Notes: generated from the sequence alone by a model not told the origin. A stretch of DNA of 64,000 nucleotides from an uncultured Candidatus Saccharibacteria bacterium (GCA_964547425.1 CAZJNH010000002.1:1028-65027); one strand, 5' to 3'; shown: positions 6,945 to 47,641, numbered from the stretch's first letter. Translations and numbers: made by a program.

Positions 6945-8030
6945 TTGGTGCTCGTGGCGATTCTAACCTTCACTCTTGCCACGTACGGACTAGGAACTGG
7001 AAAAATCCCGATTACCCGAACCGCTTTGGCCGACGCCCAGCGGGTAGTTAGCTTGTACGTCGACGGCCAAAAGCGAATCATCCCGACCGATGCCCAAACC
7101 GTCGGCGACCTATTAAACCGCAGCCACGTTACCTTAGGACCCGGCGACATCGTCGAACCGGATATTTCAACGCCAATTCCTGAAGGCGCGTTTTACGTCA
7201 ACGTCTACCGTTCTCGGCCGGTGGTGGTAATTGATGGGTCACAAGTAACCCGCGGCTACAGCGCTTACCAAAATCCGAAGCTGATCCTCGGGCAGTTAGG
7301 TATTCAAATTTACCCTGAAGATTTGTTGGCCGTTGCTCCAGTGAACGACTTTGTGAACACCGGCGTCGTCGGTCAGCAGCTGACGATCACCCGCGCCAAG
7401 TTAATTAGGGTCGAAGATTTTGATGGCAACACTAAACAGTTGCGGACGCAAGCCGCCACCGTGGGAGATGTGTTGGCCGGGCTAAACATTAAATTACGGC
7501 CCGGCGATCGAGTTTCGCCTAAGCAGTCCGCTCTGGTTGTTTCTGGAAGCACCATCACTTTATCCAGAGTTAACCAAGAATTAGTCAAGGTTGAAGAGGT
7601 GATTCCTCACGGCGAAGAAGCTATTCGCGACCCGAAGCTTGAGGTGCCGTCTACGGCGGTCGAGCAGGCCGGCAGTGATGGCCAAAAAGTCACCACTTAC
7701 AGGGTGGTTTACCGAAATGGCCAAATTGTCTCCAAAACCCCGATCAAAAGCGAGGTCACGGTCCAGCCGAAACCGCGGATTGTGGCTAAGGGTAGCCTGG
7801 TCACGGCCAACACATGGCTAAAACTGCGAATGTGCGAGTCGAGCAATAATTACGCCGACAAGTACAACCCGAATTACCGCGGCGCTTACCAGTTCTCCTT
7901 TAGCACCTGGGCTTCAGTCGGCGGTTCCGGCGACCCGGCAAATGCTTCACCCAGCGAACAGGACTCCCGTGCCCAAATGCTCTACAACCTCCGTGGTTGG
8001 TCGCCCTGGGTCTGCGCTAACGGCTGGTAG
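6945..8030 (+). CDS. RpfB-like secreted protein: DUF348-type repeats, G5-like region and a C-terminal resuscitation-promoting-factor/transglycosylase-like domain
   Basis: The C-terminal block CESSNNY..YRGAYQFS..W is the Rpf-type lysozyme-like domain; N-terminal signal anchor; the start codon is uncertain (TTG at 6945, with the frame open upstream from 6906). Confidence 0.65.
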   Translation: MVLVAILTFTLATYGLGTGKIPITRTALADAQRVVSLYVDGQKRIIPTDAQTVGDLLNRSHVTLGPGDIVEPDISTPIPEGAFYVNVYRSRPVVVIDGSQVTRGYSAYQNPKLILGQLGIQIYPEDLLAVAPVNDFVNTGVVGQQLTITRAKLIRVEDFDGNTKQLRTQAATVGDVLAGLNIKLRPGDRVSPKQSALVVSGSTITLSRVNQELVKVEEVIPHGEEAIRDPKLEVPSTAVEQAGSDGQKVTTYRVVYRNGQIVSKTPIKSEVTVQPKPRIVAKGSLVTANTWLKLRMCESSNNYADKYNPNYRGAYQFSFSTWASVGGSGDPANASPSEQDSRAQMLYNLRGWSPWVCANGW

Positions 8031-8050
8031 TGTCAGCTACAATATAAGAT

Positions 8051-8881
8051 ATGGATTTGACGAAGCTGGATGATTTGCGGTTGGCGATGAAGCTAGCCGG
8101 CATTAAACCGCGGCACGAGTTGGGGCAAAATTTTTTGATCGATGCTGATACGTTGCGCCAAATCGTTGATGCCGGCAGCCTCGAGCCGACCGACACGGTA
8201 CTTGAGATTGGGCCGGGTTTGGGTACGATGACCGGACTTCTTGCCGCCCAGTCCGCCCAAGTTGTGGCGGTTGAGTCCGACCAGAAGCTGGCCGAATTAC
8301 TGCGTAAATCTGCGCCAGCGAACGTTGAGGTCGTACCCGCCGACATCCTGCGCTACAACCTCAGCCAGCTCCCGTCCGGCTACAAAGTGGTGGCCAATAT
8401 CCCCTACTACCTAACCTCGAAAATTTTGCGTACCTTAACCGAAGCAATCGCCAAACCGGCCGTAATTGTGCTGCTGATCCAAAAAGAAGTCGCCGAGCGG
8501 GTCTGCGCCAAACCGGGGGAACTTTCTATCCTCGGATTGTCGGTCCAGTATTACGCCAAAGCTGAAATTATCGCTGTAGTCGGCCGGGAAAAATTCTGGC
8601 CGGCGCCGGATGTGGATTCGGCTATTCTGCGGATCACGCCGTTTGATAAGCCGGTTTTTGAAGCCGACATCCAAAAGCTGTTTCGGCTGATCAAAGCCGG
8701 TTTTGGCGAAAAACGCAAAATGCTCAAAAACTCTCTGGCCGGCGGGCTCAATGGCGCCGATGAATTGGTCGCGCAGGTGCTAGCCTCCGCGGACGTCGAC
8801 GGCCATCGCCGGGCGCAGGAGCTCTCGCTATCCGACTGGCAAAGGTTGTACAATGAAGCGGTTAAGCATAACCTGATTTGA
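8051..8881 (+). CDS. rsmA: 16S rRNA (adenine1518/1519-N6)-dimethyltransferase
   Basis: GQNFL, EIGPGLG and NIPYY motifs of KsgA/RsmA. Confidence 0.9.
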   Translation: MDLTKLDDLRLAMKLAGIKPRHELGQNFLIDADTLRQIVDAGSLEPTDTVLEIGPGLGTMTGLLAAQSAQVVAVESDQKLAELLRKSAPANVEVVPADILRYNLSQLPSGYKVVANIPYYLTSKILRTLTEAIAKPAVIVLLIQKEVAERVCAKPGELSILGLSVQYYAKAEIIAVVGREKFWPAPDVDSAILRITPFDKPVFEADIQKLFRLIKAGFGEKRKMLKNSLAGGLNGADELVAQVLASADVDGHRRAQELSLSDWQRLYNEAVKHNLI

Positions 8882-16828: not shown

Positions 16829-18631
16829 ATGACTACCAACGAATTGCGGTCGAAATATCTGGAGTTTTTTAAATCCAAAAGGCACACCATCATCCCTTCA
16901 GCGCCGATAGTGCCGGAGCATGATCCGACGACGCTGTTTAACAGCGCCGGCATGCAGCCATTGGTTCCGAATTTGCTGGGCGAGCCCCATCCTGCAGGCA
17001 AACGAATCGCCGACGTCCAGAAATGTTTGCGCACCACCGACATCGACGAGGTTGGGGACGAAACCCACCTAACAATGTTTGAGATGCTGGGCAACTGGAG
17101 CTTTGGCGATTACTTCAAAAAAGAGTCGATCGCGATGAGCTGGGAGTTTTTGACCGACCCAAAGTGGCTGGGGATTGATCCGAAAAAGCTATATATCACA
17201 GTTTATGAAGGTGACGCGGAGGTGCCTAAGGATTCTGAATCGGTTGAGTATTGGCAGGAACATTTTAAGTCCGTCGGTATGGACGCCAAAGAAGGGGAGC
17301 GGATCATTGCGCTGGGCAAGGACGACAACTGGTGGGAGCAGGGCGGGGTAGAGACTGGTCCCGCGGGTCCAGATACTGAAATTTTTTATTACCTGGGAGA
17401 TGAGGAAAATCCAAAGTTCGAGTATGCGGACCAATCCAAGTACGTCGAAATTTGGAATAACGTCTTTTTAACCTATCAGCGCCAAAAAGAGGGCGGCTAC
17501 AAAGAGCTGGAACAGAAAAACGTCGATACCGGTATGGGAGTTGAGCGTACCGCCGCCGCTTTGGAGGGAGTTAAAACCGTCTACGACACCGATCTACTGA
17601 GTCAAATCGGCTATACAATCACCGGACTAGCTAGCGAGGAGTTTGACCAAGTATTCCTTGAGACCGATCAAAACATGGGCAGGGCGATTCGGATTATCAC
17701 CGACCATCTGCGGGCAGCCACTTTCTTGGCGGCGGATGGAGTCCAACCCAGCAACACCGAGCAAGGCTACGTTATGCGACGGCTAATGCGCCGGGCGATT
17801 CGCCAGGGACTGGTGCTTGGGATTAAATCCGGCTTGAGCGAGACCGTCGGCGTTAAAGTAATCGAATTATACGGCGAGGTTTATTCGGAATTAACAGATC
17901 AGCAGAACCTCATTTTGGACATTCTCACAAAGGAAGAAGAACAGTTTAGAAAAACGCTGGATCGCGGGGTGCGTGAGTTCACCCGGGAGGTCAAAGATAA
18001 ACTAACCGGCGAAACCGCCTTTCGGTTGTTTGATACGTATGGCTTCCCCCCGGAGTTGTCGGTCGAGGATGCTAAACGGTTAAATATTCCGATTGATCCG
18101 AACTGGGACGAAGATTTTCAGCGGCTGATGAATGAGCAAAAAGAACGCTCGCGGACCGCGACCGCCGGCGTCTTTAAGGGTGGCCTAGCCGATCATTCTG
18201 AGCAGGTGACCAAGTACCACACCGCTAATCATTTGATGTACGCGGCGCTTCGACACGTACTCGGCAATCATGTTATTCAGCGAGGCTCGAACATCACCGA
18301 AGAAAGATTAAGGTTTGATTTTTCACATACCGAAAAAGTCACGCCCGAACAACTCAAAGAAGTTGAAGAGATCGTTAACCACCAGATTCATCGCGATTTG
18401 CCGGTGACGATGGAGGAATTACCAACCCAAGATGCCTTTGCGGCTGGCGCCATCGGTGCGTTTGGCGATAAATACGGCGACACCGTGAAGGTCTACACTA
18501 TCGGCGACTTTAGCAAAGAAATCTGCGGCGGCCCGCACGTAGAACAAACCGGCGTCCTTGGCCACTTCAAAATAACCAAAGAAGAATCCTCCTCTGCCGG
18601 CGTCCGCCGCATCAAAGCCACCCTAGCCTAA
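16829..18631 (+). CDS. alaS: alanyl-tRNA synthetase, short form (catalytic plus editing core, no C-Ala domain)
   Basis: Class II AlaRS N-terminus, editing-domain HxxxH (HTANHLMYAALRH) and CGGPHV; only 600 aa. Confidence 0.85.
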   Translation: MTTNELRSKYLEFFKSKRHTIIPSAPIVPEHDPTTLFNSAGMQPLVPNLLGEPHPAGKRIADVQKCLRTTDIDEVGDETHLTMFEMLGNWSFGDYFKKESIAMSWEFLTDPKWLGIDPKKLYITVYEGDAEVPKDSESVEYWQEHFKSVGMDAKEGERIIALGKDDNWWEQGGVETGPAGPDTEIFYYLGDEENPKFEYADQSKYVEIWNNVFLTYQRQKEGGYKELEQKNVDTGMGVERTAAALEGVKTVYDTDLLSQIGYTITGLASEEFDQVFLETDQNMGRAIRIITDHLRAATFLAADGVQPSNTEQGYVMRRLMRRAIRQGLVLGIKSGLSETVGVKVIELYGEVYSELTDQQNLILDILTKEEEQFRKTLDRGVREFTREVKDKLTGETAFRLFDTYGFPPELSVEDAKRLNIPIDPNWDEDFQRLMNEQKERSRTATAGVFKGGLADHSEQVTKYHTANHLMYAALRHVLGNHVIQRGSNITEERLRFDFSHTEKVTPEQLKEVEEIVNHQIHRDLPVTMEELPTQDAFAAGAIGAFGDKYGDTVKVYTIGDFSKEICGGPHVEQTGVLGHFKITKEESSSAGVRRIKATLA

Positions 18632-31084: not shown

Positions 31085-31705
31085 ATGCCCGACAAAATTC
31101 TCGACGTCCCATTTTATAACCAGCTCGACCAACAGGACCTGCCGGAGGAGTGGCGGCCAAACGCCTGCGGTCTTTTGGCGCTCAAAATGGTGATGGATTT
31201 TTGGCACCCCGACAAGCCAGCCAATCTCAAACAACTCCTCGGCGAAACGCTGGCCGACCATGGATATCTCGACGACGTAGGCTGGTACCACTCCGCTTTG
31301 GTGCGGGCTGCTCAGCGCCAAGGCTTTAACTCCTTTCGCCGTAGTTGGAACGTTTCCGGCGACAATAAGGACAAGTTTTCTGAAGAAGGGGTAAATGATC
31401 GATCACTTGAAGCTTATGCCGACCAGATGGAACAAGAAGCTTACCCAACGCTGGTGGCCGAGCTTGAAGAGGGTAACCCCGTGATCGTGGCCGTTGCCAA
31501 AGATTTTGACGATATCGAAAAGGGCCATCTAGTAGTATTAACCGGCGTTAAACGCGAGGATGCGCTTGGCCGCTACCTTGGATTTTTCTATAACGACCCC
31601 TATAGTCCGACCAAGACCGAGCGCAAAGACCGTTATGTCTCGATCAAACGATTTCAGGAAAAATGGAACCGCCGCGCGATTTTTATTAAGCCAGCCAATG
31701 AATAA
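31085..31705 (+). CDS. papain-like (C39-like) cysteine peptidase domain protein
   Basis: N-terminal Cys in NACGLLA and a downstream His in KGHLVV, in the spacing typical of C39-like peptidase domains. Confidence 0.5.
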   Translation: MPDKILDVPFYNQLDQQDLPEEWRPNACGLLALKMVMDFWHPDKPANLKQLLGETLADHGYLDDVGWYHSALVRAAQRQGFNSFRRSWNVSGDNKDKFSEEGVNDRSLEAYADQMEQEAYPTLVAELEEGNPVIVAVAKDFDDIEKGHLVVLTGVKREDALGRYLGFFYNDPYSPTKTERKDRYVSIKRFQEKWNRRAIFIKPANE

Positions 31706-34586
31706 GTACGATCCGAAATCAATCGAAGAAAAGTGGCAAAAGATCTGGGAAGAAACCGAGATATACAAAACGCCGGCCAAACCAGGGCAGGACAAGGCTT
31801 ATACGCTGGTGATGTTCCCCTATACTTCGGGCGACCTTCATAGTGGCCACTGGTATAACTTCGGCCCGGGAGATACGGTGGCGCGGTTTTTTCGTATGCA
31901 GGGAAAAAATGTGCTTCACCCAATGGGATTTGATGCCTTTGGACTGCCAGCCGAAAATGCCGCGATCAAGCGCGGCATCGACCCAAATACGTGGACCAAA
32001 GACGGCATCAAGAAGATGACCGAGCAGCTGAAAAAAATCGGCACTATGTACGACTGGGACAAAGTCGTTAACACATCCGACCCTGATTATTACCGCTGGA
32101 CTCAATGGTTGTTTCTGCTGTTTTACAAACACGGCATCGCCTATCGCGCTAAAGGCTGGCAAAACTGGTGCCCTAAGGATCAAACCGTTCTGGCCAATGA
32201 GCAAGTAATTGGCGAGAACAACGTCTGTGAACGCTGCGGTACACCCGTGATCAAAAAAGAGCTTGAGCAGTGGTTTTTCAAGATTACCGACTACGCGGAA
32301 CGGCTGCTTAACGATATCGACAAACTCGAGTGGCCCCAGCGCGTCAAAACGATGCAGCGAAACTGGATCGGCAAGAGTGAAGGATCTTCGATCAAATTCA
32401 GCGTCGAAGGCTCAGACAAAGAAATCGAGGTCTTTACTACCCGTCCCGACACCCTGTTCGGTGCCACCTATATGGTTATGGCGCCCGAACATCCTCTAGT
32501 TGAAAAATTGGTATCCAAAGATCAATCGGCCGAGGTCAAAAAATATCAGGAGGAAACTGGCCGCAAAACCGAGCTCGACCGGATGGAAGAAGGCAAAGAC
32601 AAATCAGGCGTCTTCACCGGCGCCCACGCCGTAAATCCGATAAACGGAGAGAAGATTCCAATTTGGGTGGCCGATTATGTTTTGATGGGCTACGGCACGG
32701 GCGCGATTATGGCGGTCCCTGCCCACGACCAGCGAGACAATGATTTTGCAAAGAAGTTCAAGCTGCCGGTTCAAAATGTTGTAAACCCGGTCTTGGTCCG
32801 TGACGACGCAAAAGGCATGACCGAATTTAAATCAAAGAAAAAAATCGTTGCAGTAGTTGAAAACGACAAAGGCGAGATATTAACCATCAACTGGGGTCCA
32901 AAACTAGGCGGCCGGTTAACTATTGGCGGCACGATTGAAGGTGATGAGTCGCCACAGGCCACGGCGTTGCGCGAGGTCGAGGAAGAAACTGGCTATCATG
33001 ATTTAGAGGTGGTTGAGGTCGGAGCCGAAACCATGCGCTACAAATACTACGCATTCTCCAAGAATGAAGCGCATGATGCGGCCGTAAATTTTGTTCACCT
33101 TAGAGTCAAAGGCCAAACCCAAAAGCCGCAGAAGCTGGATGAATCGGAGCATGGGAATTTTAAGGTCGAATGGGTGGACCAGGAAACCGCTGAAAAGGAA
33201 ATCGTTGAGCCGCTTCACAGGTATGGTTATGACAAGTTTATTCATGGCCGGGTTTACACCGGCGAGGGTCCGCTGGTCCATTCGGGCAAATACGCTGAGT
33301 TATCGGGCGACGAAGCTAAACATGCGATTATCGAAGACCTACATAAAGAAGGTAGGGCTGAGGCCGCAACTAAATATAGGTTGCGCGACTGGCTGATTAG
33401 CCGCCAACGCTACTGGGGCGCGCCGATCCCGATCGTTTACTGCGACGACTGCGGCATAGTGCCCGTGCCTGAGGAGCATCTTCCGGTCAAGCTGCCGACC
33501 GATGTCGAATTTGAGCCAACCGGCCAGTCCCCTTTGGCAACCAGGCCGGACTTCTACGAAACGGACTGTCCCAAGTGCGGCAAACAGGGCCGTCGCGAGA
33601 CCGACACTATGGACACCTTCGTCGACTCGAGCTGGTATTTCCTGCGCTACCCGAATACCAAAATCGATGATAAGGCCTTTGATACTACGGCGGTTCGGCA
33701 GTGGCTGCCTGTTGATCAATACATTGGCGGGATCGAACACGCCATTTTGCACCTGCTGTACGCCCGCTTTTTCACTAAGGTTTTGTTTGACCAAAAACTG
33801 ATCGGCTTCGATGAGCCTTTTACAAAGCTGTACAACCAGGGGATTATTGTCGGTCCAGACGGCCAGAAGATGAGTAAAAGCCGCGGCAATGTAGTTAATC
33901 CCGATGACTACGTTAGCCGATACGGCGCCGACACCTTTAGGATGTATTTGATGTTTATGGGGCCTTACGACCAGGGCGGACCCTTCGATCCTAAAGGCAT
34001 TAATGGCGTGTTCCGCTTCTTACAGCGCTGCTTCAACCTGGTCGAGGAGTTTTCTCAGCAAAAATCGGCCGGAGCTGGCGGCGGATCGCTCGCAACATCG
34101 ATAAACTCGACGATCCAGAAAATGATCAAGCGGGTCGCCCACGACACCAAAGAGTTTCAGTTCAACACCGCTATAGCCGCGATGATGGAAGGCCTCAACG
34201 AGCTTTTCCGGCTAAAGGCCGACTTACCAATAAGTGAGGACACCGAGGGCTGGCGGTCGGCGATTGAAGCGCTAATAAAATTACTGGCACCATACGCGCC
34301 GCACGCCGCCGAAGAAATGTGGCAGATAATTGGCGAGACCGAGAGTATTCACCTGCAAGGCTGGCCGAAGTACGACGAAAGTTTGGTTAAAGAAGAATTG
34401 ATCGAAATTCCGGTCCAGGTTAACGGCAAACTTCGGTCGACAGTTACCGCTCCACCGGACTCCAGCGAGGCAGAATTGGTCGCATTGGCCAAAGAACAAA
34501 CGGGAGTGCAAAAGCAGCTTGAGGGCAAAGAGATTGCCCGTACCGTCTACGTTCCGCGCCGCCTCATCAACTTCGTTACTAAATAG
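31698..34586 (+). CDS. leuS: leucyl-tRNA synthetase with an inserted NUDIX hydrolase domain
   Basis: Start MNKYDPKSIEEKWQKIW (ATG 31698, overlapping the previous stop); HIGH region, KMSKS, and all LeuRS blocks. A perfect Nudix box GGTIEGDESPQATALREVEEETGY lies between AHDQRD and KYRLRDW; the ORF-track entry 31560..34586 includes a spurious N-terminal extension. Confidence 0.9.
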   Translation: MNKYDPKSIEEKWQKIWEETEIYKTPAKPGQDKAYTLVMFPYTSGDLHSGHWYNFGPGDTVARFFRMQGKNVLHPMGFDAFGLPAENAAIKRGIDPNTWTKDGIKKMTEQLKKIGTMYDWDKVVNTSDPDYYRWTQWLFLLFYKHGIAYRAKGWQNWCPKDQTVLANEQVIGENNVCERCGTPVIKKELEQWFFKITDYAERLLNDIDKLEWPQRVKTMQRNWIGKSEGSSIKFSVEGSDKEIEVFTTRPDTLFGATYMVMAPEHPLVEKLVSKDQSAEVKKYQEETGRKTELDRMEEGKDKSGVFTGAHAVNPINGEKIPIWVADYVLMGYGTGAIMAVPAHDQRDNDFAKKFKLPVQNVVNPVLVRDDAKGMTEFKSKKKIVAVVENDKGEILTINWGPKLGGRLTIGGTIEGDESPQATALREVEEETGYHDLEVVEVGAETMRYKYYAFSKNEAHDAAVNFVHLRVKGQTQKPQKLDESEHGNFKVEWVDQETAEKEIVEPLHRYGYDKFIHGRVYTGEGPLVHSGKYAELSGDEAKHAIIEDLHKEGRAEAATKYRLRDWLISRQRYWGAPIPIVYCDDCGIVPVPEEHLPVKLPTDVEFEPTGQSPLATRPDFYETDCPKCGKQGRRETDTMDTFVDSSWYFLRYPNTKIDDKAFDTTAVRQWLPVDQYIGGIEHAILHLLYARFFTKVLFDQKLIGFDEPFTKLYNQGIIVGPDGQKMSKSRGNVVNPDDYVSRYGADTFRMYLMFMGPYDQGGPFDPKGINGVFRFLQRCFNLVEEFSQQKSAGAGGGSLATSINSTIQKMIKRVAHDTKEFQFNTAIAAMMEGLNELFRLKADLPISEDTEGWRSAIEALIKLLAPYAPHAAEEMWQIIGETESIHLQGWPKYDESLVKEELIEIPVQVNGKLRSTVTAPPDSSEAELVALAKEQTGVQKQLEGKEIARTVYVPRRLINFVTK

Positions 34587-42806: not shown

Positions 42807-42870
42807 ACATGTATTTTTCTAACCTGTTAAGGGTGTAACCCTTAACAGGTTAGTCGATTACAAGGTTTCC
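42807..42870. repeat. REP-like palindromic element, family 2 (copy B), contains the perfect 16-bp-stem hairpin CTAACCTGTTAAGGGT-GTA-ACCCTTAACAGGTTAG
   Basis: Read directly; the stop codon of the adjacent transposase lies inside the hairpin. Confidence 0.85.
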
Positions 42871-43461
42871 TAGTAACGGTTTAGAGTCTCGGATTAAACC
42901 CTCATGGAAGTCAGAAAACTCCATAGAGCCTGAAAACAGGCTAAGAACATCGATATGCTTCAACCACCGTGGAGCATGTCCTAACACGAAATAACGGTAG
43001 CTTGAATACGGGTATCGCAGGTAGCTCAACCTGATAGTTTGGGGATTTAGATGGATGTAACGGGTCAAGTGCATAATTTGCTCGTCTGATTCTGCGAGAA
43101 CCGCTTTATATGTCCCCTGAAACAAACTCCCGACGCGGTTGTGCCTCGTATTGAAATACATTGCATATTTGGTCCCAATAGATTTCATTAACTTCGTAAT
43201 ACCTTCAGCCGTGTTTTGCCTGACGAGCAAATGAAAATGATTGGGCATCAAGCAATACGCTAAAAGATCGATTTCTTTACTTAGTTCCGGCAAGTTGTCG
43301 GGCCGTTTTTTTTGATCCGGGTCCAAATAAAGTTTCAGATAGCCTAGAAACACTCGATAATCTTGGTCGTCCATGAAGATATCACGTTTTTCAACACCTC
43401 GGTTGTAGATGTGGTAGTACCCGCCCTCTTGATATTGCTTGATAGTATTACGGCTTGGCAT
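42850..43461 (-). CDS. tnpA: IS200/IS605-family Y1 (HuH) transposase-like protein (RAYT-like), second paralog
   Basis: HuH motif MPNHFHLLVRQ, GTYKAV Tyr region; about 55% identical to the 12003..12557 product; flanked by family-2 REP copies B and C. Confidence 0.8.
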   Translation of the reverse strand: MPSRNTIKQYQEGGYYHIYNRGVEKRDIFMDDQDYRVFLGYLKLYLDPDQKKRPDNLPELSKEIDLLAYCLMPNHFHLLVRQNTAEGITKLMKSIGTKYAMYFNTRHNRVGSLFQGTYKAVLAESDEQIMHLTRYIHLNPQTIRLSYLRYPYSSYRYFVLGHAPRWLKHIDVLSLFSGSMEFSDFHEGLIRDSKPLLGNLVID

Positions 43462-43546: not shown

Positions 43547-43853
43547 GGCTTTGGTAAAGCCCAATTAGGGCACCAAAAATTACTGAAAAAGCGAAGTAAG
43601 GGATAAGGCTGGGGAGATAGGTGATGCTGCCGGCGTAGCCCTTGTCGGTTAGGATTTTGCCTAGCTCAATTAGCCGTAGAGGGCCAAGCCGAACGGTGAC
43701 GACGAGTGAATCCGCGTTTATGAAGCGGCGCGCGTACCAAAGAGTTAGCCCAAGCAGCAACATTGATGCAGCGATAAGTGCTTTGCCGGTCCAGCTGGCA
43801 ACTTGGTTTTGGGATTTAGTACGGTCTAACATGCCTTGGATTCCTCCAAACAA
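43536..43853 (-). CDS. small membrane protein (two TM)
   Basis: 105 aa, hydrophobic helices; no family recognised; the start may be internal. Confidence 0.35.
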   Translation of the reverse strand: MFGGIQGMLDRTKSQNQVASWTGKALIAASMLLLGLTLWYARRFINADSLVVTVRLGPLRLIELGKILTDKGYAGSITYLPSLIPYFAFSVIFGALIGLYQSHKT

Positions 43854-45156
43854 AATTATTTCTGATCCGCTCGATTAAAAAACAAAGCCCAAATAGGGTC
43901 ACAGCGAGAACTGCATACCCTAGCGTGGTCTGCTGCGGCGCTAAAACGGAGGATAATTTTGGTAGCCCGATCAGTAACGACACGCACAAGCTAGCGCTTA
44001 ATAATTGCCCCGACACGTCGCGCCCGCCGGTGACCAGGGACTCCGAAACCGCCAGACCAACCGCTGAGCTAAACAACATCAAGACCACAAACTTCATACC
44101 GATAAATCCGTCGTTGGACAAAGCGATCACGGCAAATCCGATTGGTGCTGTGGCAAGCATTGATAGTAGGGTGACTGTAAGCAATTGTGTCCGCATAAAT
44201 CGGACAACGCCGTAGAGCCCGGTGATTTCCGGCGGTTTAAATTTTTTAACGGCTCCTCTTGCGTCCGTCGCGAACGCACTGGCAAGTACCGCCGCGACTA
44301 TCAAGAAGACTCCGCCATCACCGACAGCGGTTTGATGATATAACGCGGATATGGCGACCAAACTACTTAGCGCGATCGTTACCGCAAAAGCCCCGGCGAT
44401 GCGCCGATGACGTAACAGTTTCGCGAAGTACCAGTGTCGATTCGAGCTATAAGATAACGTTTTTGTTTGCAGGTTTTGCTCCTGCTGGAGGCGCTCGGTT
44501 AAGCCATAAACGCTAATTACTAACCACACAACCGGAATTACCAAGATTAAGGCTGCCGCGGAGTACCAGGCCAAGCTTGGCTGCCCTTCGAAATAAGCGA
44601 TGATTATCTTTTTTAACAACAAAATCTCATCTGCCGCGATTAAGCCCGCCAAACCAAGCCGTAATGCCAACTTCGAACTAGGTTGGTAACTAGCAAGCCC
44701 AAACCCTGAAATGAGTCCGATCCCGACAGCGCCGACTACTTGTCCGGTAGGTAGGCCGAGATTAGCCACAACTAGCCAGAGAGGCTGAATAATCAGGACC
44801 AGAAGCAAACAGCCAAGAATAATTCCAGGGGCGTTAATGACTAGCCATCGCCGCACCGGGCCAATCGGTAGCGCAACCATCAACCGTGCTAAAGCTGACC
44901 GGCTAGGCAGAATGGCTTGGCCCATCAGCAAGCTTATTCCCGCCAGCAGCTGCACGCCCACGGTGATCACCACTAGCCACCACCATTTCGGCAGGCCGGG
45001 ATACAGCGGCAGCTGACGCAGAGCCGGCACCATCAAGCCGGTGAAAGCTAGGAGCAACGCCACTAATGCCACTAACCGAACCCTGGCTTTGCGCAGCAAT
45101 GGCCCTTTATCCCGCCCGAACGTCGTCACCAAACCAAGTTTAGTAAATTCAAACAC
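43816..45156 (-). CDS. polytopic membrane permease, probably the ABC transporter transmembrane subunit
   Basis: 446 aa with 10 or more predicted TM helices; start overlaps the upstream ATPase gene. Confidence 0.5.
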   Translation of the reverse strand: MFEFTKLGLVTTFGRDKGPLLRKARVRLVALVALLLAFTGLMVPALRQLPLYPGLPKWWWLVVITVGVQLLAGISLLMGQAILPSRSALARLMVALPIGPVRRWLVINAPGIILGCLLLVLIIQPLWLVVANLGLPTGQVVGAVGIGLISGFGLASYQPSSKLALRLGLAGLIAADEILLLKKIIIAYFEGQPSLAWYSAAALILVIPVVWLVISVYGLTERLQQEQNLQTKTLSYSSNRHWYFAKLLRHRRIAGAFAVTIALSSLVAISALYHQTAVGDGGVFLIVAAVLASAFATDARGAVKKFKPPEITGLYGVVRFMRTQLLTVTLLSMLATAPIGFAVIALSNDGFIGMKFVVLMLFSSAVGLAVSESLVTGGRDVSGQLLSASLCVSLLIGLPKLSSVLAPQQTTLGYAVLAVTLFGLCFLIERIRNNFVWRNPRHVRPY

Positions 45157-45928
45157 CGGCGGCCGCCAGCTTCAAAAACAGCCGCTCTAGACTGCCAAAC
45201 CGCCTGACCAGCTCTTGTTTGCGCCCCTTAATCGCTACTTCGCCGTCATTTAGCAGCAAAATCTCATCGGCGACACGCTCCGCCCACCATAGGTCATGGG
45301 TCGCGGCGACAATAGAGGCGCCCCGCTTAGCTTCATCCCGAATTAATTTTTCAGCCGCGATGATTGCCAGTGGATCCAAACCGTTGCGCAACTCGTCAAC
45401 AACAATCACCGCTGGTGAGTGCATTAACCCCGCGATAATCTGGACCTTCTTTTTGTTTCCATGGCTTAAGCTTTCAAGAGCTTGATCCCACGAGGAAAAA
45501 TACAATCGGGCGGCCAGCTTCTCAGTTAACCCGTCTTGAACCTTACGACCTGCGTCCTCATATACTTTGCCAAGCAGCCTAAAGTACTCGCGTGCCGTTA
45601 GCTCAGCTACGAACCAGCTGTCGTCGTCGGGTATAAAACCAAGCGAGGCCTTGGTTTGCCGCAGATTATGGCTGAGTGTTTGGCCGCCCAACTTAACTTC
45701 TCCTCGGTCCGGCTTAGTCAGCCCAGCCAATGTTTCAAGCAAAGTAGTCTTGCCGCTGCCGTTCGGACCGGTGACGCTAAGTATTCGCCCTGGGAGCACT
45801 TCGAGGCTATCGATGACCAACTTAAAATTCCGGCCGCGTTTAACCTCAAGAGATTCCAGCTGCAGTGCCGGCTTTAGGCCCATCGCGATCTCCCAATCTT
45901 GACTAGCGTCAGCCCATCTCCATACCAT
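45149..45928 (-). CDS. ABC transporter ATP-binding protein
   Basis: Walker A GPNGSGKTT, signature-like LSHGNKKKV, Walker B VVVDE, H-loop. Confidence 0.8.
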   Translation of the reverse strand: MVWRWADASQDWEIAMGLKPALQLESLEVKRGRNFKLVIDSLEVLPGRILSVTGPNGSGKTTLLETLAGLTKPDRGEVKLGGQTLSHNLRQTKASLGFIPDDDSWFVAELTAREYFRLLGKVYEDAGRKVQDGLTEKLAARLYFSSWDQALESLSHGNKKKVQIIAGLMHSPAVIVVDELRNGLDPLAIIAAEKLIRDEAKRGASIVAATHDLWWAERVADEILLLNDGEVAIKGRKQELVRRFGSLERLFLKLAAAGV

Positions 45929-46686
45929 GGGAGCCAGCTCGCCGCGTGCGTCAAACCAATCAATATTCCGTAAGTTGGAATTGCGCTATCGATCAATCCT
46001 CCGGCCCGGCCAAACGCAATCGCGGTTAGTCCTCCCAATAAAGGACATAGCAGAGCCGAAAACAGCTCTTTGCGAGGGGGAAGTTCGGGATGCACGACGC
46101 CTAGCCTTAGCCCCTGCTGCAAAACACTCGAGCGCCGGCCGCTCCACGTGGCAATTAAAACGTGGAAATATTCATGCACGATCAGGCTAATCAGGATCAT
46201 CACTAGCGACGCTCCGGTAATAGCGATGAACTTTGCCATAGCGAATAACCCGCTGCCATTCGCTAGCAGCAACAAAATTGGCCAGCTAAGCCATATCCAA
46301 CCGGTTGCCCGCAAAGTTGCCACCGTCACCGACCTCAAACCGCCCGGCCGTCGATAACTAAGCTTCGGCAACCTCATACCCTGGAATATCCAGAGCACTC
46401 GACTTAGCTCTTGCTTGATAGCTCCAGCCCAGCCGCGTTTAACCCTGAGCGCTCCGGTATGGTTCAAAAAACTCAAAACCTCAGCCAGCTGCTCATCCTT
46501 TAGCCCGGATTTCGCTAACCAGCTAGAGTAGGAGATTGAACTCCGTAAGAGTTTCAACGCTCGGTAGGCCTGTTTGTTGATCTGGTGATTTGCGTCCAGA
46601 GTCACATCAACCAGATAATATTTAGTTAGGATAAATTCGTTGGAGAGCGACAAGGTGTCGCCCTCCAACAGATACGGTTGTGGCAT
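45874..46686 (-). CDS. membrane-embedded HExxH zinc metalloprotease-like protein (M50/SpoIVFB-like) with an approximately 100-aa N-terminal soluble domain
   Basis: HEYFH inside a TM helix, further TM helices, N-terminal non-membrane domain; overlaps the ABC ATPase start. Confidence 0.45.
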   Translation of the reverse strand: MPQPYLLEGDTLSLSNEFILTKYYLVDVTLDANHQINKQAYRALKLLRSSISYSSWLAKSGLKDEQLAEVLSFLNHTGALRVKRGWAGAIKQELSRVLWIFQGMRLPKLSYRRPGGLRSVTVATLRATGWIWLSWPILLLLANGSGLFAMAKFIAITGASLVMILISLIVHEYFHVLIATWSGRRSSVLQQGLRLGVVHPELPPRKELFSALLCPLLGGLTAIAFGRAGGLIDSAIPTYGILIGLTHAASWLPWYGDGLTLVKIGRSRWA

Positions 46687-46694
46687 ATTCTAAC

Positions 46695-46889
46695 TTAGTT
46701 GCAGTAGAAGATGACGCGTCCGCGGAGCCAGTCGACCGCGAGCTGTTTGGTCCGGTGCCAACCGCAAATGAACACCGAAACCGCTGCCGCGCCGCCGATG
46801 GCCAAAATCCAGACCAAGGCGACCACGATAATGGCCACCTCTTTTGTGCTGTAGTTGACTGAAGAGTCGGCCACAATTAGTGAGTTCAC
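46695..46889 (-). CDS. small single-TM peptide (64 aa) at the head of the M50-like/ABC operon
   Basis: GTG start 7 nt after the strong SD AAGGGGGAAG; hydrophobic core VAIIVVALVWILAIGGAAAVSVFICGW; ends 8 nt before the M50-like start. Confidence 0.45.
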   Translation of the reverse strand: MNSLIVADSSVNYSTKEVAIIVVALVWILAIGGAAAVSVFICGWHRTKQLAVDWLRGRVIFYCN

Positions 46890-47083
46890 TAAGCTTCCCC
46901 CTTAAATTAATATGCGATTTCGTTTATACGAAATGCTTGCTCGGCTTGTCAATAACTTTTTGGTTATTTCTCCAAATAGAAAATACATACTTGTTATGTT
47001 ACACAAGTTCAAGTTTTTTTGGAGCCGTGTTATCGTGGTCGTATTGTTCGTTGTCGCGAAAAAAATAACCAGTAGGAGGGTAC

Positions 47084-47641
47084 ATGCTAAAAGAAATTAT
47101 TAATGAAACATCCGAAGCTGTTGTTGCGGCCGTCAAAGGTGTCGACGACATTTTAGGGGCGGTCACCGGCACCGTTAAGCACCAAGTGACCAGCGTACTC
47201 AAAGGCACCGGTGAGGTTTCGGGCAGCGGGATCGACGCGGTGGCTTCGGTTGCCAGCGGTGCGATTCAAGGGGCAGGCAAGGTTGGAGCCTCGTTGACCG
47301 AAGTCGTTAGCGGTACTATGCATGGTGTGGTTGGCGCGGCCAGCCAGGCTGGCAGTGATGTTACTGACGCAGTCCGCGGTGCAGCGACCGGTGTGGTCCA
47401 GGGTACCGCCGAGGTCGGCGGAGATGTTGGCGGCGCTGCCGTTTCGGCGGTTGAAGGCGCGATCAAGGCGGCCGGTGACGTGGGTGCTGATACCGGCGAA
47501 GCCGCTACGGCCGCGGTCGGCGGCGCGATGAAGGCCGCTACTACAGTTGGCGGCGATGCGGCTGGTAAAGTCCGTGAGGCCCTGCTTTCCGCGGCCGCTC
47601 TGCCCCGCGACACTATCGAAGCAGCTCTAAAAGGCAGTTAG
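47084..47641 (+). CDS. Gly/Ala/Val-rich tandem-repeat protein (about 22-aa periodic repeats), no TM or signal
   Basis: RBS AGGAGGG; repeats such as GAIKAAGDVGADTGEAATAAVG and GAMKAATTVGGDAAGKVREA visible at the protein and DNA level. Confidence 0.5.
   Translation: MLKEIINETSEAVVAAVKGVDDILGAVTGTVKHQVTSVLKGTGEVSGSGIDAVASVASGAIQGAGKVGASLTEVVSGTMHGVVGAASQAGSDVTDAVRGAATGVVQGTAEVGGDVGGAAVSAVEGAIKAAGDVGADTGEAATAAVGGAMKAATTVGGDAAGKVREALLSAAALPRDTIEAALKGS

Follow-up and report, generated by a model that had tools for sequence, protein, structure and literature searches.

We analyzed a five-gene operon on the minus strand of a 64,000-nucleotide (nt) stretch of DNA from an uncultured Candidatus Saccharibacteria bacterium (GCA_964547425.1, CAZJNH010000002.1:1028-65027); the whole stretch is called the window here, and all coordinates are positions in it. 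The operon encodes, in order, a 64-amino-acid (aa) membrane peptide, a membrane protease, an ATP-binding cassette (ABC) ATPase, a permease and a 98-aa membrane protein (Table 1, in which the tmc names refer to the bacteriocin clusters discussed below). A first-pass annotation of this DNA had described the first four genes, at 43816-46889, as a candidate module for peptide processing and export. All four were found where it had placed them, and the junctions it had called near-abutting or overlapping are, in order, an 8-nt gap and overlaps of 10 and 8 nt. The extent of the module, however, had been drawn too short: a fifth, coupled gene, which overlaps the permease gene by 17 nt, lies outside the flagged interval, so that the operon reaches 280 nt past the flagged start, and a conserved RNA hairpin had also been missed. 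The flagged genes and the fifth gene are one translationally coupled operon.

The strong Shine-Dalgarno sequence ascribed to the peptide gene was confirmed 7 nt ahead of its start codon. About 35 nt upstream of the peptide start we found a near-consensus promoter-like site, TTGACA-18-TATAAA, which a consensus promoter scan had omitted because the scan demands a T at position 6 of the -10 element. None of the five proteins has a name in the source databases, and neither Pfam nor NCBIfam gives the protease family one; the exact 244-aa ATPase (in NCBI and Logan) and the exact 98-aa protein were both already on record.

Table 1. Features of the operon, from its upstream to its downstream end.
Feature	Position	Strand	Basis
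Promoter-like site: TTGACA (46952-46947), 18-nt spacer, TATAAA (46928-46923)	46923..46952	-	pattern match only
Shine-Dalgarno sequence AAGGGGGAA	46895..46903	-	7 nt before the GTG of the peptide gene, read from the sequence
tmcA-like precursor peptide gene, 64 aa, GTG start	46695..46889	-	open reading frame (ORF)
4-transmembrane (TM) site-2-protease gene with RRE domain, 270 aa	45874..46686	-	ORF
Conserved 15-bp RNA hairpin	46638..46670	-	folding -26.8 kcal/mol, z -5.35
RRE/PqqD-like domain, residues ~1-105, predicted cytoplasmic	46372..46686	-	AlphaFold2 (AF2) model, Foldseek, clostridial homology
4-TM site-2-protease (M50 clan) domain	45874..46371	-	family profile match to 3B4R
tmcB-like ABC ATPase gene, 244 aa	45149..45883	-	ORF, Pfam ABC_tran
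tmcC-like single-chain permease gene, 446 aa, ~12 TM helices	43816..45156	-	hydropathy, low-confidence AF2 model, conservation
tmcE-like small membrane protein gene, 98 aa, two TM helices	43536..43832	-	ORF, ATG start

The 64-aa peptide showed a single long hydrophobic span in a hydropathy analysis, as the first-pass annotation had proposed. It can be divided into a leader (residues 1-17, SLI..YSTKE), a TM helix and a 20-residue beta-prone loop between two cysteines, C42 and C63, which are invariant among the Saccharibacterial peptides. An ORF of 64-65 aa was present immediately upstream of the protease gene in every homologous locus for which upstream DNA was available, which settles the earlier doubt whether the small ORF is kept beside homologous operons. 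Where synonymous sites were unsaturated, its ratio of nonsynonymous to synonymous substitution rates (dN/dS) was 0.06-0.12, indicating that the small ORF is a real gene under purifying selection.

Word-indexed homologue searches found little. The 270-aa protease returned only five relatives, the peptide and the permease returned the query itself as the sole match, and a genome scan with close alignment gave no match. When a profile of the protease was run against 1.84 billion cluster representatives, 332 clusters matched at E <=1e-3 and, of these, 166 at E <=1e-30, all of about 280 aa and matched over their full length. The order peptide-protease-ATPase-permease-2-TM protein is unbroken in all homologous loci that extend far enough to reveal it, with permeases of 420-450 aa and a last protein of about 100 aa; the 98-aa gene is thus the operon's last gene in all of them. 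The recurrence of this order in all sufficiently long loci establishes the operon far beyond chance. All loci with an organism name (four of four) belong to Candidatus Saccharimonadales/Saccharibacteria, and the window itself resembles a chromosome of the Candidate Phyla Radiation (CPR) in its housekeeping genes and its short alanyl-tRNA synthetase. This enzyme is just 600 aa long (16829-18631, plus strand), which fits a reduced, CPR-type genome. The flanks of the operon vary by clade. In eight more distant loci (L008, L009, L012, L014, L015, L017, L018 and L019), a divergent polA gene, encoding DNA polymerase I, adjoins the operon on its upstream side, and this shared neighbor points to vertical chromosomal inheritance; the neighborhood of the window copy differs from that of the polA-adjacent loci.

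The HEYFH motif of the 270-aa protein had been read as the hallmark of site-2 proteases (S2P) and the M50 family lying inside a helix, and our results bear this out. HEYFH occupies residues 171-175 (46162-46176) within a helix predicted at residues 150-181, and it is followed by a distal motif, P253-x3-D257-G258 (D257 codon, 45916-45918). Ten residues, H171, E172, H175, H199, P215, G218, H247, P253, D257 and G258, are invariant in 27/27 diverse members of the family. A profile built from these members matched the S2P of M. jannaschii (mjS2P, 3B4R) with an E-value of 2.7e-6; HExxH fell on H54ExxH58 of 3B4R, and P-x3-DG on its Asp-Gly motif (PMDGG). The Pfam M50 model (PF02163) gave 16.5 bits against a gathering cut-off of 27.2, and it was sub-threshold in 13 of the 27 members; an NCBIfam search with the protease gave no match. 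In the AF2 model of the protease (predicted local distance difference test (pLDDT) 86.7, predicted template-modeling score (pTM) 0.81), an N-terminal beta/alpha domain precedes four TM helices, and a beta-hairpin follows the HExxH helix. Judged by its sequence and its predicted structure, the protease is a 4-TM S2P-clan enzyme. The first-pass annotation had allowed that PDZ domains might have been overlooked in an RseP-type housekeeping protease. Pfam and the model contained neither a PDZ nor a CBS domain in this protein of just 270 aa and four TM helices, and the RseP-type candidate was rejected because PDZ domains are absent. The protease gene (45874-46686) is given as 259 aa in the NCBI record and as 270 aa in Logan; only the 270-aa form contains the hairpin codons and certain conserved residues at the N-terminus.

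The next two genes agree with their first description as an ABC ATPase bearing GPNGSGKTT and a permease with 10-12 TM helices. The ATPase starts at the ATG at 45883, matches Pfam ABC_tran with E 3e-22, and retains an intact Walker A motif (GPNGSGKTT), signature (LSHGNKKK) and Walker B motif (VIVVDE). It falls in a DrrA/ABCA-like clade, since its best NCBIfam match is a DrrA subfamily and its best PDB matches are ABCA nucleotide-binding domains. For the permease, hydropathy and a low-confidence AF2 model suggest about 12 TM helices in a 6 + 6 arrangement, with a short helix before each half. Its single-sequence AF2 model was poor (pLDDT 54.7, pTM 0.37), and hhalign between the two halves found no internal duplication. 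The first-pass annotation had proposed profile searches of the permease for exporter families; it had no Pfam similarity and no PDB profile match. In the 98-aa protein, a beta-prone loop of about 35 residues separates the two TM helices.

This set of genes resembles the clusters that produce transmembrane-helix-containing bacteriocins (TMcins), a class reported from Bacillota and Actinomycetota only (Dickey et al. Nat Commun 2025, PMC12328743; Nur, Antwi, Dickey bioRxiv 2026, PMC13252029). In a TMcin, a disulfide between two universally conserved cysteines holds the loop, and the cluster on S. aureus pCT545 has the order tmcB-tmcC-tmcE-tmcP-tmcA (PMC12328743, PMC13252029). TmcB is an ABC ATPase, and TmcC is a type V permease whose 12 TM helices lie in a single chain. 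Cleavage and secretion both require TmcE, an escort with two TM helices. TmcP is an S2P-clan protease of four TM helices that has HEYMH and a distal Asp but lacks the gating helices 5-6 of mjS2P. The roles of these proteins in cleavage, in the formation of the disulfide and in secretion were established with S. aureus mutants (PMC13252029). Saccharibacteria, Patescibacteria, PqqD and RRE go unmentioned in both papers (PMC12328743, PMC13252029).

The five genes of the window match the TMcin parts list one to one. The precursor has a leader and a TM helix, with one cysteine at the top of the helix and another near the C-terminus, which follows the pattern ..V.(I/E)C(R/K). The protease is of the 4-TM S2P-clan HEYxH type without gating helices, and the ABC ATPase likewise stands alone. 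The single-chain permease of TMcin clusters, with 12 TM helices, and their 2-TM protein, of about 95 aa, have counterparts in size and topology. The cysteines also correspond in position. S. aureus TmcA is cut after N45 to give a 52-mer with C25 and C50, in agreement with the published values. In the window peptide, cleavage is most likely after Glu17, by analogy with TmcA, which would give a mature 47-mer with C25 and C46. If the cut is at E17, the first cysteine is at mature position 25 in both the window peptide and TMcin-G1905, so that the two share the distance from cleavage site to first cysteine. The spacing between the acidic residue before the helix and the first cysteine is constant in the other Saccharibacterial peptides.

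We compared the profile of 19 Saccharibacterial peptides with that of 39 TmcA sequences, taken from the source data of the TMcin paper, using hhalign. The profiles aligned with Prob 76.8 and P 2.1e-5 over 47 columns, which are exactly the mature region, with both cysteines aligned, and this score was reached by 0/300 shuffles (150 of columns and 150 keeping the hydrophobic block in place). The ATPase aligned with TmcB with Prob 100, a result that is generic to ABC ATPases.

The N-terminal domain of the protease, which the first-pass annotation had suspected of being an element for peptide recognition, provided a second connection. The AF2 model has strands at residues 11-35 followed by three helices at residues 38-77. 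When this domain was compared with the PDB by Foldseek, recognition elements of peptides that are made on the ribosome and modified after translation (RiPPs), known as RREs, came out on top: MccB, TigE, MadB, TbtB and TbiB1, with E-values of only 0.2-3. The match to the MccB peptide clamp had a probability of 0.99 and a root-mean-square deviation of 2.6-2.7 over about 80 residues, and the match to the lasso RRE TbiB1, in its leader-bound structure, had a target-normalized TM-score of 0.64. The Pfam PqqD model (PF05402) gave no direct match in the window protease or its 27 relatives.

Clostridial plasmids with TMcin loci show the same arrangement of domains. PqqD-S2P fusions of 290-297 aa are encoded by C. 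perfringens pJIR3844 (WP_015060574.1) and Paraclostridium bifermentans (WGX77503.1); in these fusions, PqqD precedes a membrane domain that carries HEWxH and LLPFxxDG. The N-domains of these 'PqqD family proteins' scored 34-52 bits against a PqqD cut-off of 23.4 (E 3.6e-8 and 1.2e-13). The TmcA of the Paraclostridium locus (L029) is identical to the entry listed in the TMcin paper, and that of the C. perfringens locus (L028) is the listed entry save for a longer N-terminus. The Saccharibacterial protease family aligned with the clostridial fusions over the full length and through both domains, with Prob 93.4-95.5 and E 2.5e-7 to 1.5e-8. Since the clostridial proteins are PqqD-positive, this alignment confirms the RRE assignment by transitive homology, as the earlier suggestion had anticipated, and it ties the window protease to bona fide TMcin clusters. 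The similarity of the protease to TmcP/DUF3267 proteins that lack an RRE was confined to the HExxH region (Prob 68). Judged from these sequence and model comparisons, the N-domain points to the recognition of a dedicated peptide substrate.

The clostridial fusions and the window protease thus share two domains, an RRE/PqqD domain and four TM helices with HExxH and LLPxxxDG, in proteins of 290-297 and 270 aa, and the clostridial loci are laid out A-B-C-(fusion)-E. They differ in that pairwise identity is only about 18-24%, that the window N-domain itself does not reach the Pfam PqqD model, and that the clostridial loci also encode a separate DUF3267 protease and a thioredoxin-domain protein. 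The fusion and accessory genes are at 7475-8347 and 9237-9845 in L028 and at 7496-8389 and 9278-9910 in L029.

On this evidence, the operon is probably of TMcin type and makes a transmembrane-helix bacteriocin, as a divergent variant of the TMcin cluster in Saccharibacteria. The first-pass reading of a bacteriocin- or RiPP-type precursor-protease-exporter locus is supported by the conserved small ORF, the S2P protease, the RRE and the match of the TMcin parts. The variant would differ from the described clusters in several respects: it belongs to Saccharibacteria (CPR), its gene order is A-P-B-C-E, its leader has 17 aa rather than 45, its protease bears an RRE domain and not DUF3267, its permease and 2-TM protein match in size and topology only and are not detectably homologous, and the operon is chromosomal, polA-adjacent in eight loci, and carries no DsbA or regulatory genes.

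The RNA hairpin may bear on how such an operon is expressed. It lies on the sense strand, within protease codons 6-16 and thus right behind the peptide gene, and was found in 12-13 of 16 loci. Pairing held in 79.6% of cells, against 39-52% in slid controls, and we observed compensatory changes at synonymous sites as well as G.U wobbles on the sense strand. Rfam gave no match in the hairpin region. The position of the hairpin suggests attenuation, 3'-end stabilization or a translation brake, each of which would raise the ratio of the peptide to the processing machinery.

By analogy with the S. aureus system, we propose the following route for the topology, cleavage, disulfide formation and secretion of the peptide and for its formation of pores. 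A hairpin just past the peptide gene in the mRNA probably sets a high ratio of peptide to machinery. The 64-aa precursor would insert so that its N-terminal leader of 17 residues faces the cytoplasm and its C-terminal loop the outside. In the cytoplasm, the RRE/PqqD-like domain of the protease would bind the conserved leader SLI..YSTKE, and the S2P core, using HEYFH and Asp257, would cut the helix at its cytoplasmic end, the most likely cut being after Glu17. The 98-aa 2-TM protein may aid cleavage by replacing the missing gating helices, like TmcE; it resembles TmcE in size and topology. The invariant cysteines, at mature positions 25 and 46, would bond as a disulfide that pins the beta-hairpin loop atop the helix. 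Two copies of the ATPase and the 12-TM permease would then extract the hydrophobic 47-mer from the membrane and release it, and the freed peptide would form pores in target membranes.

Several results weigh against a TMcin-type operon. When hidden Markov models were compared with single sequences, the peptide and TmcA did not match significantly (median empirical p 0.05-0.13), and the real sequences were outscored by the best decoys. Given the profile match and these weak single-sequence tests, precursor homology to TmcA is suggestive, not proven. Two highly conserved tryptophans flank the TMcin helix; the one at its N-terminal end is absent here, and only the one after the first cysteine (CGW) is kept; the loop between the cysteines has 20 residues versus 24 in TMcins. 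The permease had no detectable similarity to TmcC (P 0.84), the 98-aa protein reached only P 0.01 against TmcE in hhalign, which was not significant, and Pfam placed neither the window protease nor its 27 relatives in DUF3267 (PF11667). No DsbA or thioredoxin gene was found in the window, where a search for CxxC motifs gave only zinc-ribbon-like sites; according to the authors, non-staphylococcal TMcin clusters also lack an oxidoreductase gene (PMC13252029). If the peptide inserts by itself, its acidic N-tail and basic C-tail favor the opposite topology. The peptide is also more conserved than its protease (identities of 50-80% versus 35-53%), and this conservation together with the polA synteny has the look of an operon inherited vertically in reduced genomes, an unusual pattern for a bacteriocin.

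The last of these points would be accommodated if the small protein were not secreted but stayed permanently in the membrane, as a subunit or regulator of a housekeeping complex of protease and ABC transporter, one that perhaps clears or processes other membrane peptides; the axis of RasP/Eep with EcsAB/PptAB offers an analogy. We regard this explanation as unlikely. It would account for a peptide of fixed length, 64-65 aa, that is conserved over its whole length and more so than the protease, for the position of the operon beside polA in eight loci, and for the absence of modification enzymes: no RiPP-modifying enzyme or regulator was linked to the operon at any locus. The acidic N-tail and basic C-tail would fit a stable N-out/C-in membrane protein, and the genomes appear to be of the small CPR type, in which the genes kept tend to be essential. 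The basic C-tail, the absence of an oxidoreductase, and the strong conservation with vertical inheritance keep this explanation alive. It is opposed by the RRE fold and the PqqD homology, which point to a dedicated peptide substrate, and under it the component-wise match to TMcin clusters and the positions of the two cysteines would be coincidence.

A product that is exported but acts as a signal, in quorum sensing or host sensing, and not as a pore-forming toxin, seems improbable to us. Eep and PptAB process and export hydrophobic pheromones, and the operon holds the parts of such an S2P + ABC pheromone route, namely a hydrophobic peptide, an S2P-clan protease and an ATPase of DrrA/ABC-2 type; high sequence conservation would suit a ligand-receptor pair. 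No receptor or regulator gene, however, is linked to the operon at any locus, the mature region aligns with that of TmcA, which is an antimicrobial, and a 47-residue TM-helix product is atypical of pheromones. The first-pass alternative of a regulated intramembrane proteolysis unit, in which the small membrane protein would be cut to free a cytoplasmic effector, is very improbable: an S2P-clan protease does adjoin a single-pass membrane protein, but the cytoplasmic tail of about 17 residues has no DNA-binding or anti-sigma domain, the PDZ and CBS sensor domains are absent, and the signaling alternative is left unsupported by the absence of a sigma factor, anti-sigma factor or regulator from the operon and its conserved flanks.

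Other known systems resemble the operon in part. In the epeXEPAB (yydFGHIJ) locus of Bacillus subtilis, a precursor peptide likewise shares one operon with EpeP, an M50 protease of the membrane, and with the ABC transporter EpeAB. It differs in that Epe requires a radical-SAM epimerase, that its product is a soluble 17-aa peptide and not a TM-helix peptide, and that EpeAB confers immunity. Neither the operon nor the flanking DNA at any locus contained a radical-SAM gene, and an epe-type locus was rejected because this enzyme is absent. In the B1/B2 proteins of lasso peptides, an RRE fused to or partnered with the leader peptidase likewise brings the leader to the protease; there the protease is a soluble transglutaminase-like cysteine protease, whereas that of the window is predicted to be an intramembrane zinc protease. 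A circular or double-glycine bacteriocin locus was rejected as well, since there was no C39 peptidase domain and no DUF95 protein. PADLOC reported nothing specific and no defense-system match, and in the literature on RRE with M50, or on Saccharibacteria with RiPPs or bacteriocins, we found no description of such a system.

If the operon is indeed of TMcin type, the TMcin class would extend to the CPR through a divergent version that is conserved across Saccharimonadales. This family was not reached by PSI-BLAST started from TmcA or by standard tools for genome mining, and the 332-cluster protease family together with the conserved peptide family could be used for building search models. The protease also indicates that one protein can combine an RRE/PqqD domain with an intramembrane site-2 protease, which links the recognition of leaders, a hallmark of soluble RiPP enzymes, with processing inside the membrane; such an RRE-fused intramembrane protease is present, though undescribed, in clostridial TMcin loci too. 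Saccharibacteria are obligate epibionts, the best studied of which live on Actinomycetota, and the operon is a concrete, testable candidate for the means by which epibionts with reduced genomes might affect the membranes of their hosts. More speculatively, and with considerable doubt on our part, the operon could be a core, vertically inherited tool of symbiosis and not a means of fighting competitors. The helix-anchored peptide, once exported, would then insert into the cell membrane of the host and open stable pores there, which would leak nutrients to the epibiont or kill the host, and the RRE-fused protease would be an undescribed type of RiPP leader peptidase shared with the clostridial TMcin clusters.

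Other observations concern the neighbors of the operon in the window. An IS200-like Y1 transposase or REP-associated tyrosine transposase is encoded directly downstream (42850-43461, minus strand; Pfam Y1_Tnp, E 7e-11), and the 75-nt spacer between the operon and the transposase gene contains a promoter-like site and small inverted repeats. On the other side, divergent from the promoter region of the operon, a 185-aa protein rich in Ala, Gly and Val is encoded at 47084-47641 (plus strand); it had no family match, and it also adjoins the operon in the near-identical Logan contig L001. Farther away, the leucyl-tRNA synthetase ORF (31560-34586, plus strand) contains a NUDIX domain at residues 429-554 (Pfam E 6.9e-14), an unusual insertion that sits just past the editing domain.

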